A stretch of 61,749 nucleotides of DNA, the filler included, from Globobulimina sp. (lineage: Eukaryota): assembly GCA_003354225.1 (NCBI GenBank). It is 27 parts of 27 records of this genome, joined end to end, with 100 filler letters (N's around TTAATTAATTAA, not from the genome) between each part and the next. Parts side by side here need not be neighbours in the genome. Positions count along the whole stretch, not along the records: positions 6,879 to 9,070 come from PIVH01008290.1; 26 more parts are not named here. One strand, written 5' to 3'. The notes beneath the pieces were generated by a model, which saw only the letters and a list, made by a program, of their open reading frames with translations, was not told the origin of the DNA and did not search any database. The position numbers and the translations under genes are program-made. Numbering within the stretch: position 1 is the first letter of the stretch; each line of letters opens with the position of its first letter. This document shows, piece by piece, positions 6,396 to 9,685 of the stretch.

Positions 6396-6878
6396 TATAA
6401 TTGCTATATTAGCAGTTATTATTACGTGCGTAATCTATAATTCTTTGGTAACACATATTAATTTATTTAGAGTGTATTTCGTTTCTATCAAAATTATGGA
6501 TTTTTCCATAAAAACACTATAATAATATAAATTGCATGCAACAAATCCGAGCAGTTGGAAAATCGGAAAATAATCTGAAAGAGATTGGAATTAATGACAA
6601 GAAATATAGACACAAATTATTGCAAGCTATTAAGTCGATAAATATTTGAGTATTATGCCATCCCATAAACAGAACTTGTGAGTAGCATAATATTATAACA
6701 GTGTCTTCGAGACTAGTTTTTAATCCTTGGTTGTTTTGCTTCCTTCTTGTTTTTTGGATGATACCACTCTCTTTTGTCNNNNNNNNNNNNNNNNNNNNNN
6801 NNNNNNNNNNNNNNNNNNNNNNTTAATTAATTAANNNNNNNNNNNNNNNNNNNNNNNNNNNNNNNNNNNNNNNNNNNN

Positions 6879-7120
6879 ATGTCAGTAAAAATTAACCGAT
6901 TAAAATTACGATCCCTTTGGAACAGTGAGTACACCATTTTTATTACTCAGATAATTGCTATAGTTACCAAGTACAAGCCCGAAGTATTAAACCTTACAAA
7001 AGCCTTTGGTAAGTTGACCAAATTTGTACCCGAGTTAGCAAAAATTAAAGCACAAGAGCTAGGCAGTGCCCTTAGCAAATTATTACTTAATTTAGATAAT
7101 GAACGCGATATTTTGTTTGA
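6879..7120 (+). CDS. N-terminal fragment of a bacterial DUF6261/HagB-like protein fused to the retroelement (probable chimera)
   Basis: KINRLKLRSLWNSEY...LDNERDILF pattern; RT similarity in another frame begins at about 7121. Confidence 0.5.
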
Positions 7121-8092
7121 TGCTATTGTGGGGCAATTAAAGAGAGAACTGGGAAGACGGTATACTGGTCAATTGATGGTGGTCTACAGGCTCTAGCTAA
7201 AGTGCAAAGAATGGGGAACAGATTACAGAGTGTGCAAACTGCGGACTTCAGCACATTATTTAAAAGTTTTGATCATACAGTTATCAAACAGCAAATTTTC
7301 AAATTATTTGATATGTGTATGCGTAATTCTGGGAAAGCATATGTAGTGGAAGGGAAGCGCAATTTATATTATTCGTCAGCACGGGTGGAGGACTATCTTT
7401 CATTGGAATCAACGGAAATTAAAGAACTAATATCCTATATCATTGATGAAACTTATGTTAAATTTGGACCCTGGATGTTTAGACAAACTTGCGGTGTACC
7501 CATGGGAGGAAATGCATCCCCTACCTTGGCGGACCTTACTCTCAGCATGCTGGAATACAATTTCCTATCCAAAAAAGAGAATCAGCAGGTTGCCAGACGC
7601 ATGGGGAATACAGTACGATATATTGATGATATATTAACTATGAATTTTGAGGATCTAATGGATGTAGCTGCACAGATTTATCCTCCCTCATTGCCTTTGG
7701 AAATTACATCCGCTAATTTTGGTAAATGTGATTTTTTGGACATGACTATTACATGTGGTAATAATGCATATATTGCTGTATATAATAAAACGGATGACTT
7801 CAACTTCAATGTTATTAGATATTTATTCGCTGACAGTAATGTTCATAGTAATTTGGGGCTACAGGTTTATCAATCTCAATTGCTTCGTTTTCTCAGGATT
7901 AGTAATCGCTTGAATAATCTTATTAGCAGAAATAGGGAATTGTTTTTCAGTTTGGTTTCCAATGGTTTTAACAGATTTGATTTGATTAATTGCTCATTTA
8001 AATTCTATGAACGACATAAAATGGAAATACTCAAATTTGGTCTAACAGATAATAAAGAGATAGCACGTTTTATCTGCACTTTTACAAATTAA
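7121..8092 (+). CDS. Reverse transcriptase (C-terminal part) of a Penelope-like element, Naiad/Chlamys-like
   Basis: Frame open from 7121: YCGAIKERTGKTVYWSID, ADFSTLF, QTCGVPMGGNASP, RYIDD, IYPPSL, FLD, YNKTDDFNF, SNVH..VYQSQLLRF; no C-terminal GIY-YIG domain. Confidence 0.88.
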   Translation, partial: CYCGAIKERTGKTVYWSIDGGLQALAKVQRMGNRLQSVQTADFSTLFKSFDHTVIKQQIFKLFDMCMRNSGKAYVVEGKRNLYYSSARVEDYLSLESTEIKELISYIIDETYVKFGPWMFRQTCGVPMGGNASPTLADLTLSMLEYNFLSKKENQQVARRMGNTVRYIDDILTMNFEDLMDVAAQIYPPSLPLEITSANFGKCDFLDMTITCGNNAYIAVYNKTDDFNFNVIRYLFADSNVHSNLGLQVYQSQLLRFLRISNRLNNLISRNRELFFSLVSNGFNRFDLINCSFKFYERHKMEILKFGLTDNKEIARFICTFTN

Positions 8093-8141
8093 AAATTTGC
8101 TCATAGTATTAATTTAGCAGGTAAAATACTGCCCTATTTAA

Positions 8142-8433
8142 AAGCTGTATACCTAGCTGGGGGTATACATTGCCCAGCTTAACCAGTAGTTCAATAGCCG
8201 GTATACTTCGCTGGGAGTATATCCTCAATGGCATTACCAGTTGCTTAGTAACCTTTTTGGTTGAAATGACAATGTGACGTCACTTGGCGTCTTACATATT
8301 AATTTGACGATTCCTTAGCATGACTTCTTAAGCAGTAGGCCTAGCTGGGGGCTTACTTTAATGCTTAACCAGTAGTTCAATTGCCGTACACCTGGCTGGG
8401 AGTGTACATATCATGGCTTACCAGTAGTTCAAT
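8142..8433 (+). repeat. Four ~52-nt structured repeats (8142-8195, 8197-8247, 8329-8381, 8383-8433)
   Basis: Consensus GCn-stem-(N)GCTGG loop-stem-variable-nGC-TT(A)ACCAGTAGTTCAAT, with compensatory stem changes. Confidence 0.9.
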
Positions 8434-8719
8434 ATACTGTAGATTTACTACATGGCGTCAGCCTGATGCCGTTGGTATTGGTTTTACGAATGGACGCACA
8501 AACCCAAAATTGCACGTAATCGACTGTTTTTGATTAAAAATTCGCAAAAATTTGGTTATTACGAGCAAAAAGTGATGATAACAAGAAAACCAGTTTCTTA
8601 AAGACCGTCAAGACGAAAAATTATCTGCGGTAAGAAATTCAGTCTTCTCATAAACGCTTACTTTTTTATTCTGATTTGGTTTCGGCTGTTTTGTTTTTTG
8701 TATATTTTTCAGAATTGCC

Positions 8720-8872
8720 ATGGGTCGTGGATATGGTCGAGGAGGTCGAGGAGGTGGCGGTCATGAGAGAGGAGGTCAAAGAGGACGGGGTGGTGAGCAT
8801 GTTGGACGCAGGCAGCAGCTGAACACAAATAAAAGATCCCGCCGGGAGTATACTCCAGTTAGTTTATTTTAA
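8720..8872 (+). CDS. RGG-rich micro-ORF/first coding exon (MGRGYGRGGRGGGGHERGGQRGRGG...)
   Basis: GCCATGG start context just after putative intron 8630-8712 (GTAAGA...TTTTTCAG); GTTAGT donor at 8858. Confidence 0.6.
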   Translation: MGRGYGRGGRGGGGHERGGQRGRGGEHVGRRQQLNTNKRSRREYTPVSLF

Positions 8873-8949
8873 GAGCGTTTAAATAACTATGTTTTATTAT
8901 ATTTATAATAACGTGTTATGTGGTGTAATTTTCGGTAGCTATTTTTAAT

Positions 8950-9043
8950 GGTTTATTGGTTTCTTCTGATGAAGGTCCCGCCAATAAACCAGCAGGTCTA
9001 CTAAAAATTGAGTCAAGAAACAGGGACCGAAACTCAATTTTTA
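8950..9043 (+). ncRNA. Hammerhead ribozyme, non-circularly permuted
   Basis: CTGATGA 8966-8972, GAAA 9029-9032, GTC 9012-9014; stem I 8959-8965/9015-9021, stem II 8974-8979/9023-9028, stem III 9002-9013/9032-9043. Confidence 0.88.
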
Positions 9044-9685
9044 TTATTATTATTTTATGCTACCTGCAGTNNNNNNNNNNNNNNNNNNNNNNNNNNNNNN
9101 NNNNNNNNNNNNNNTTAATTAATTAANNNNNNNNNNNNNNNNNNNNNNNNNNNNNNNNNNNNNNNNNNNNTGACCATGGGTGGAGAGACAGTCCTTTTTA
9201 CATACATCTAACTGGGGGAATGCATTTTTCTCAATAATGAAAAGTGTCCTATTATTCCTAACAGGGCGACAGTCTGAATGCGGATTTTTAAGATCGATTT
9301 GCTAATCTACTGGACTGTGTAGTAACTATATAACTCTACTTTTCCTAGTGGCAGGCATTTCCTGTATGTATACATCCAAATGGGTTAAATTCCACTGTAC
9401 CAACATAAATGAATGAAATGGCGGATACAAAATTCAATATAGTAGCACTGCGGCGTCCCGCTAGCTACTTTTTGGACACTAGCTGGTGGAGAGACATCCG
9501 TTCATTCCGATCAGGCATATCCAACACCTTAGACGCCCTTAATGGACCAGCAAGTTCACGGATTACTCTTCCTTAGCATACACCTGCTTTATTGCGTCAC
9601 ATATGTTGCCAAATTAATTTTAAATAGTGATTAGCCAATGCCCAACGACTCAGTTGATACCAAGGCACACTGAGATCACCTATCA

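Follow-up and report, generated by a model that had tools for sequence, protein, structure and literature searches.

Background

To our knowledge, almost nothing is known of the RNA signals used by Penelope-like elements (PLEs). The branch of these retrotransposons with an N-terminal endonuclease is abundant in invertebrates, algae, and protists. We analysed a 61,749-base stretch of Globobulimina sp. DNA (assembly GCA_003354225.1), called the window below, in which an array of four hairpin units follows the stop codon of a reverse transcriptase (RT) fragment assigned to this branch. The matched stem changes and the fixed loop of the units suggest a working RNA signal.

The hammerhead ribozymes of PLEs are the first system for comparison. 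Passages of Cervera and de la Pena 2014 (PMC4209133) describe them in the pseudo-long terminal repeat (pLTR) of canonical PLEs, where they often act as tandem dimers. Like the array, they are small structured motifs in tandem copies, possibly paired. The window units, in contrast, are plain hairpins with a fixed loop, lack a hammerhead core, and have no Rfam match. According to passages of Craig 2021 (PMC8557442), the N-terminal-endonuclease (Naiad-type) clade has no canonical hammerhead in its pLTR. The same source gives the Naiad/Chlamys branch a domain order of N-terminal GIY-YIG and C-terminal RT, and describes 5' truncation as common to most PLE insertions. The pLTR carries the promoter and the transcription start (passages of Craig 2021, PMC8557442; Frangieh 2024, PMC11167929). 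Chlamys-type PLEs resemble the array in that repeats lengthen their non-coding part; no hairpin, stem-loop, or covariation is mentioned in the passages of Craig 2021 (PMC8557442) on these repeats.

The second system is the anole PLE, PAc, whose reverse transcription starts in an AC-rich stem-loop with two adjacent sites, and whose protein is predicted to be a dimer (Frangieh 2024, PMC11167929). This stem-loop protein signal, with two adjacent sites and a predicted dimer, is similar to the role proposed here for the array. The PAc site lies 111-118 nucleotides (nt) inside the open reading frame (ORF), whereas the window array occupies an untranslated stretch and belongs to a different PLE clade.

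Outside PLEs, the 3' untranslated regions of eel UnaL2 and of R2, which are stringent non-LTR (long terminal repeat) elements, reportedly carry stem-loops that are recognised by the RT, with binding data. These hairpins are said to share with the array a position near the end of the RT gene and a conservation of loop letters and stem pairing over stem sequence. They are reportedly single and located at the extreme 3' end of a non-LTR RNA, whereas the window has four copies in a PLE. Structured repeats in the untranslated region of a retrotransposon are a known kind of feature, and the array would be one of them, observed in a single family. In the literature searched, supplementary consensus lists excepted, we found no comparable array or cis-acting RNA for N-terminal-endonuclease PLEs.

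Hairpin units downstream of the reverse transcriptase

The window consists of 27 joined pieces of ~2,192 bases each, and neighbouring pieces are not necessarily adjacent in the genome. The joins occur every ~2,292 bases (e.g. 6779-6878), each made of 44 N, a 12-base stop-rich spacer, and 44 N. The genomic context of the array is only the piece at 6879-9070 (2192 nt). The RT frame ends with a TAA stop at 8090-8092, and the array of four ~52-nt units begins 49 nt 3' of it, confirming the initial annotation, which had placed four such units about 50 nt past the stop. A repeat search gave start-to-start spacings of 54, 134, and 51 nt. Each unit was parsed into an outer 5' strand, an arm, a six-base loop, the second arm, a linker, an outer 3' strand, and a tail:

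8142-8195, + strand: U1 (A type); outer 5' strand 8142-8146, arms 8147-8154 and 8161-8168, loop 8155-8160
8169-8175, 8176-8180, and 8181-8195, + strand: 3' part of U1 (linker, outer 3' strand, and tail, respectively)
8195-8249, + strand: U2 (B type); arms 8200-8208 and 8215-8223 (one additional base pair), loop 8209-8214
8235-8249, + strand: tail of U2, the most diverged of the tails
8250-8329, + strand: spacer of block 1; includes a palindrome of 10 nt (8274-8283, TGACGTCA core); in a variant contig, 6 nt are deleted at 8281
8330-8381, + strand: U3 (A type); arms 8335-8342 and 8349-8356, loop 8343-8348, tail 8367-8381
8381-8433, + strand: U4 (B type); arms 8386-8393 and 8400-8407 (one C-A mismatch), loop 8394-8399, tail 8420-8433
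8434-8520, + strand: spacer of block 2, homologous to 8250-8329 and far more diverged than the units; variant substitutions at 8467, 8477, and 8481

The units had been described as two tandem pairs. Both pairs are present; they are not independent arrays, as a block of ~187 nt was duplicated, each copy composed of one A unit, one B unit, and a spacer (alignment of 8125-8328 with 8312-8520). Comparison of the two blocks shows identical loops and tails in the A units, different linkers, and much stronger divergence in the spacers. The loop-plus-tail pattern matched four times in the window and in none of 100 dinucleotide shuffles. Tandem Repeats Finder, run on the window, did not detect the four-unit array.

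Covariation and conservation of the inner hairpin

The inner hairpin of each unit has 8-9 base pairs (bp), and 31 of the 32 cells in the alignment pair (96.9%). Three of the eight pairs vary on both sides: one occurs in three forms, and two others change on both sides. RNAalifold recovered this hairpin unprompted from the four units. The annotated property of inner stems that differ in sequence yet pair held up. The inner stems contain G-U pairs on the + strand, and the one C-A mismatch is in U4. Loop GCUGG and downstream CCAGU are invariant in 4/4 units, and the linkers range over 5-7 nt and differ in sequence, both as originally described.

The two A units, U1 and U3, show 6 differences over 26 stem positions, and 13/13 pairs remain intact (P = 0.0007 for random placement of six changes). 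In the 11-pair core, 43 of 44 cells pair (P = 0.0009, within-column permutation). With all three helices as entered, 95.2% of the cells were paired, and sliding the 3' partners by 1-3 columns reduced this value to 32-47%. The covariation score of the three-helix structure was 0.260 compared with 0.123 in shuffles, and 2/500 shuffles reached it.

A variant version of the region was obtained from one public run (X1), which contains 73% of the sampled words of the stretch and may be the window's own sample; contigs were compared, not reads. The contigs showed substitutions at 8106, 8118, 8120, 8134, and 8138 and at 8467, 8477, 8481, 8538, and 8544, and small insertions or deletions at 8085, 8140, 8281, 8451, and 8539. 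No listed substitution falls at 8171-8433, compared with five at 8106-8138 and five at 8467-8544. By our own arithmetic, the chance of ten substitutions all missing 8171-8433 is ~3e-4 when they are placed at random over 8093-8590 outside the contig-end zones; set against this figure, differences within ~30 nt of contig ends are unlisted, leaving room for one or two at 8141-8170.

Compensatory stems together with a frozen loop and tail and a free linker are the usual mark of a selected RNA hairpin, and we consider it fairly probable that RNA structure is under selection at the units. For the inner hairpin and its invariant loop, the selected RNA fold proposed in the initial annotation is thereby reasonable; the hairpin-pseudoknot architecture proposed with it was unsupported by any test.

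Possible neutral repetition and results against a selected fold

The array could also be a neutral repeat, in which a quasi-palindromic stretch of ~52 nt was duplicated twice and is now decaying, the matched changes came from DNA templated correction or from chance, and the RNA has no function. We regard this as unlikely, although it is an alternative to be taken seriously. In its ancestral form, GTATAC, the arm core reads the same on both strands, so that the arms are both direct and inverted repeats; there are only four related copies, to which the caution about relatedness applies. Several features of the units speak against neutral decay. Their loops and tails match exactly from block to block, in contrast to the much greater divergence of the spacers that were duplicated with them. 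Two stem pairs have changed to G-U, an outcome not expected from DNA correction. The 6/26 stem differences between U1 and U3 broke no pair (P = 0.0007), and the variant version has no listed substitution at 8171-8433.

Other results weigh against selection on RNA structure, and they start with the covariation itself. The more robust measures were moderate, as both-side changes were reached in 9/500 shuffles and further pair types in 85/500, and the counting tool cautions that related sequences may beat shuffles without any structure. All the evidence derives from four copies in a single family and locus, whose sequences served both to derive the structure and to test it. Single-unit folding gave z values of −1.0, −1.2, −1.2, and +0.75 for U1 to U4, respectively, which are ordinary compared with shuffles. 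The minimum-free-energy fold of U1 is an alternative loop-to-linker pairing, and the 250-nt stretch at 8113-8362 had a folding z of −0.77. Such ordinary folding energies fit a neutral repeat. The whole of 8093-8720 gave a folding z of −2.8 (only 20 shuffles).

The distribution of the module points in the same direction. The comparison set comprised 79 metagenome loci encoding RT relatives at 21-45% identity, and the motif pattern was found in 0/79. A covariance model from the four units scored 79.3 and 72.5 bits on its own units (U4 = 72.5), only two of the four being listed since neighbouring units overlap by a few bases. Over the window and the 79 loci, its best foreign match was 12.7 bits (E 2.2). 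Absence from related elements had been named beforehand as an observation that would speak against the fold, and the module was absent from the 79 loci by both pattern and covariance model. At no more than 42% RT identity, the relatives are too distant for untranslated sequence to be recognisable, and its presence there cannot be expected. A longer pattern matched four stretches in 596 billion bases of prokaryote genomes and one in viral contigs, which were chance hits; none of the five encodes the RT. A neutral repeat would agree with this lack of a homologue in the 79 loci, prokaryote genomes, and viral contigs searched.

The closest look-alike among the pattern matches, L080:2954-2988 (− strand), resembles U4 and was rejected: it lies in a bacterial gene for an ABC-transporter ATPase, the hairpin is not preserved, and no RT is nearby. 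This stretch shares ~34 letters with U4 beyond expectation (rough estimate ~1% among 5 hits), and we deemed the likeness a coincidence.

The stretch after the RT stop was also compared among the relatives. In at least 7/47, tandem repeats with a period ≥20 begin no more than 600 nt past the stop (Tandem Repeats Finder), the 47 being those with ≥300 nt past a nearby stop among the 71/79 with usable coordinates. This count is a lower bound, because Tandem Repeats Finder misses the window's own array. Post-stop tandem repeats are thus fairly common in relatives, and an array in one of them, L064, is without convincing structure; both facts suit the neutral repeat. The L064 array, with four 75-nt repeats, was rejected as a comparable structured array, as its consensus folding energy was −1.5 kcal/mol and it showed no useful covariation.

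Structure after the stop was not a general property of the relatives, which again counts against a selected fold. For folding stability, 53 loci were chosen for enough sequence and 49 were measured; the 250 nt past the stop had a mean z of −0.54 (median 0.05), compared with −0.83 (median −0.87) for coding sequence. The idea of a general structured region after the stop was rejected, the untranslated stretch being no more stable than the coding one. An excess of perfect hairpins (P ≤ 0.01) was present in 2/47 untranslated regions (L004 and L045) versus 1/47 coding regions. L004 had 11 perfect hairpins in 500 nt, with 1.4 expected, and L045 had 6, with 1.8 expected. In L004, a 288-nt block occurs twice (2560-2760 and its repeat) with six different hairpins of 4-6 bp and U-rich loops; the two repeats are too similar for covariation testing.

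Strand of the hairpins

The + strand of the array is the RT sense strand. Folding energies of U1 to U4 were −15.4, −14.9, −16.6, and −10.3 kcal/mol on the + strand and −13.8, −11.4, −11.0, and −10.4 kcal/mol on the − strand. G-U pairs on the + and − strands stood at 6 to 1 with the invariant closing pair counted and at 2 to 1 without it. Assignment of the hairpins to the + strand is moderately supported. Minus-strand coding was rejected as a source of the pattern: no ORF of ≥60 aa extends over the array, and the differences between units follow pairing, not codons.

The hairpins might instead act in minus-strand complementary DNA or in other single-stranded DNA, for example in second-strand priming, a role that we judge very improbable. 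Covariation shows pairing and not which nucleic acid pairs, and without the closing pair the G-U asymmetry is only 2 versus 1. When the closing pair is counted, however, the + strand has 6 G-U pairs and one mismatch and the − strand has the reverse, and the − strand folds more weakly in 3/4 units.

Outer stem and proposed pseudoknot

The outer stems had also been annotated as covarying. The four units share only a 3-bp core; two of its three pairs never vary, and the single covarying position could equally be the ninth pair of the inner stem. RNAalifold prefers to pair the outer 3' strand with the start of the tail, which gives a 4-bp mini-hairpin with ACCAGU in its loop. This 3' mini-hairpin shows one both-side change, in U2, and the single-unit fold of U2 predicts both the hairpin and the 3' mini-hairpin. 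The outer stem and the 3' mini-hairpin are mutually exclusive candidate pairings.

In the initial annotation, the GCTGG loop paired with the downstream CCAGT, forming a knotted fold that would block exonucleases or promote translation. We find such a knotted protective or translational element improbable. The five complementary bases are present in 4/4 units, and an H-type pseudoknot with a one-base first loop and a third loop of 13-15 bases would be sterically ordinary with the outer stem open. All five pairs are invariant, and hence there is no covariation; chance alone yields such a match in 12% of shuffled tails and in 23% of random 27-mers. If the outer stem were closed, 1-3 linking bases would be left, seemingly too few to span the distance to the loop. 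Part of the tail has another partner in the RNAalifold prediction, and no exonuclease-resistant or translation-element family was found by Rfam in the array at E up to 10.

Known RNA families

No Rfam family reached gathering score anywhere in the window. Over 7800-8900, relaxing the limit to E 10 yielded only SNORD87, snR13, SprD, and SCARNA7, at chance level and far below gathering score. At this limit there was no match to a twister, twister-sister, pistol, hatchet, HDV-like, or hairpin ribozyme model, and SECIS was not found in the window or, up to E 10, in the array. These scans bear out the earlier statement that the units match neither SECIS nor HDV, twister, or pistol. ARAGORN found no tRNA gene in 6879-9070.

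The element and the position of the array

Two reading frames flank the array:

7121-8092, + strand: 5'-truncated C-terminal part of a PLE RT, 323 codons and TAA (ORF, homology)
8720-8872, + strand: Arg/Gly-rich (RG-rich) ORF, 50 codons and stop

The RT frame is open for 323 codons from 7121, with no UGA read-through in 7121-8089. Its RVT_1 match in Pfam was sub-threshold (20 bits, cut-off 29.6). A search of 5.8 billion proteins gave 64 longer relatives at E ≤ 1e-3, of which the closest had 41% identity over 98% of the query. The protein collection held no closer RT relative, and the best near-length match showed 47% identity over part of the query. The fragment matches residues 684-1001 of P0001 (1006 aa; GIY-YIG 152-237, RVT_1 647-854) at 41% identity. 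It aligns at 41% identity over 320 aa with the last third of proteins of 845-1050 aa; the stop comes after the thumb region, and no endonuclease follows.

RVT_1 was near the C-terminus in 3/4 relatives scanned. In the Naiad/Chlamys clade, a CxC motif connects the GIY-YIG endonuclease with the RT. An N-terminal GIY-YIG was present in 4/4, and CxC columns were present in a 41-sequence alignment of relatives; the window copy is cut off at ~7121, short of where either feature would lie. Because the domain order in the relatives is GIY-YIG followed by RT, the fragment is, as judged by homology, the C-terminal 323 aa of an N-terminal-endonuclease PLE of the Naiad/Chlamys kind. As reported for the pLTR of the Naiad/Chlamys clade, no canonical hammerhead was found by Rfam in the window or in 20 related loci (0/20). 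In the entire window, tblastn matched only 7124-8074, and a contig from another copy departs from the window sequence just upstream of 7127; the window copy is therefore 5'-truncated.

The RG-rich ORF probably represents the beginning of the element's own reading frame in a partial tandem, as the N-terminal exon of the copy that follows. In four of the closest relatives (L001, L002, L003, and L019), such an ORF starts 140-325 nt past the RT stop, a range that becomes 140-630 nt with the window included. These starts fit the partial-tandem layout of PLEs, and the array is therefore placed in a pLTR-like stretch. The piece of 2192 nt contains no second full PLE copy. The original assignment of the array's context to a PLE was correct; the part that changed is its location between two frames and not in a plain 3' untranslated region, because the RG-rich ORF start follows at 8720. 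The array is ~290 nt 5' of that start.

This position raises the question of control at the DNA level. The 187-nt block could be a promoter or enhancer repeat of the pLTR, akin to the enhancer duplications of LTRs, with the conserved letters serving as protein sites on duplex DNA; we see this as somewhat less likely again than a neutral repeat. The PLE pLTR carries the promoter and the transcription start (passages of Craig 2021, PMC8557442; Frangieh 2024, PMC11167929), the array is ~290 nt upstream of the ORF start at 8720, each spacer holds a CRE-like palindrome (8274-8283 and a near copy at 8453-8460), and the most conserved parts, the loop and the tail, are fixed sequence blocks. Duplex sites should, however, keep their letters and not swap both arms in match, and the arms of U3 and U4, having mutated, no longer form palindromes by themselves.

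The first spacer palindrome is a perfect 10-nt one with a TGACGTCA (CRE/ATF-like) core, and its copy in the second spacer has one mismatch. Both are possible transcription-factor sites in the pLTR.

Proposed role of the units

On the reading of an RNA hairpin under selection, the array would be a cis-acting RNA module, present four times in the pLTR of a 5'-truncated N-terminal-endonuclease PLE. The module would comprise an 8-9-bp hairpin, an invariant six-base loop, a free linker, a short GC core, and an invariant ACCAGU-containing tail, and selection would preserve the stem pairing together with the letters of loop and tail.

By analogy with PAc, we tentatively propose, with rather less than even confidence, that the units serve on the + strand RNA as docking sites for a protein encoded by the element. 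The hairpins may dock the RT itself or its Arg/Gly-rich N-terminal part. By docking, the protein would tag the transcript of its own element for assembly into ribonucleoprotein and for choice as template, and the pairing of A and B units would suit a dimeric enzyme. One finding on PAc, the only PLE studied in vitro, speaks against this proposal and weakens the analogy: the protein-binding RNA needed there is confined to the ORF, within its first 172 nt, whereas the full pLTR can be dispensed with in vitro (Frangieh 2024, PMC11167929).

Alternatively, though very improbably, the tandem pairs might be a new self-processing or docking RNA that replaces the hammerhead in hammerhead-less PLEs. The boldest form of this idea is a new class of self-cleaving ribozyme standing in for the hammerhead missing from the clade, to which we give at most a slim chance. 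It has in its favour that the units are in tandem pairs and in the pLTR region where canonical PLEs have hammerheads that often work as tandem dimers (passages of Cervera and de la Pena 2014, PMC4209133), and that passages of Craig 2021 (PMC8557442) report the N-terminal-endonuclease clade as hammerhead-less. Against this, no known ribozyme family was matched at E up to 10, and the units contain no hammerhead core, with Rfam finding none at 7800-8900 (E up to 10). The conserved core of a hammerhead comprises CUGANGA, helix II, GAAA, and a cleavage triplet. The only CUGAUG string, at ~8461-8468, lacks the following core A and GAAA and is not kept in the sister spacer (by eye). The units also have little conserved internal-loop sequence such as catalytic cores show, and the module is present in none of the 79 relatives.

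Whichever protein or process is involved, a covarying four-copy hairpin is a concrete and cheap test object for protein binding, for the start of reverse transcription, and for processing. If the template tag proves true, it would help to explain how PLEs choose their own RNA, with a possible use in retrotransposon-based insertion tools.

Additional observations

In L006 and L009, CUGAUGA and GAAAC strings located ≤350 nt past the RT stop recall a hammerhead by eye; Rfam detected no hammerhead in these two loci at E up to 1.

One X1 contig joins 8331 to 8644 on opposite strands. Position 8331 is at the boundary of the second 187-nt block, and the short side of the join has only 33 letters. This join may be the inverted arrangement typical of PLEs or a repeat artefact.

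A further stretch resembling the units is found inside the RG-rich ORF:

8840-8868, + strand: part of a possible fifth module, in which loop and 3' arm run straight into a tail-like sequence; 92% to U2 (loop and 3' arm)

It contains a perfect 12-nt palindrome at 8845-8856 and lies ~120-150 nt into the ORF, roughly where the anole PLE starts reverse transcription.

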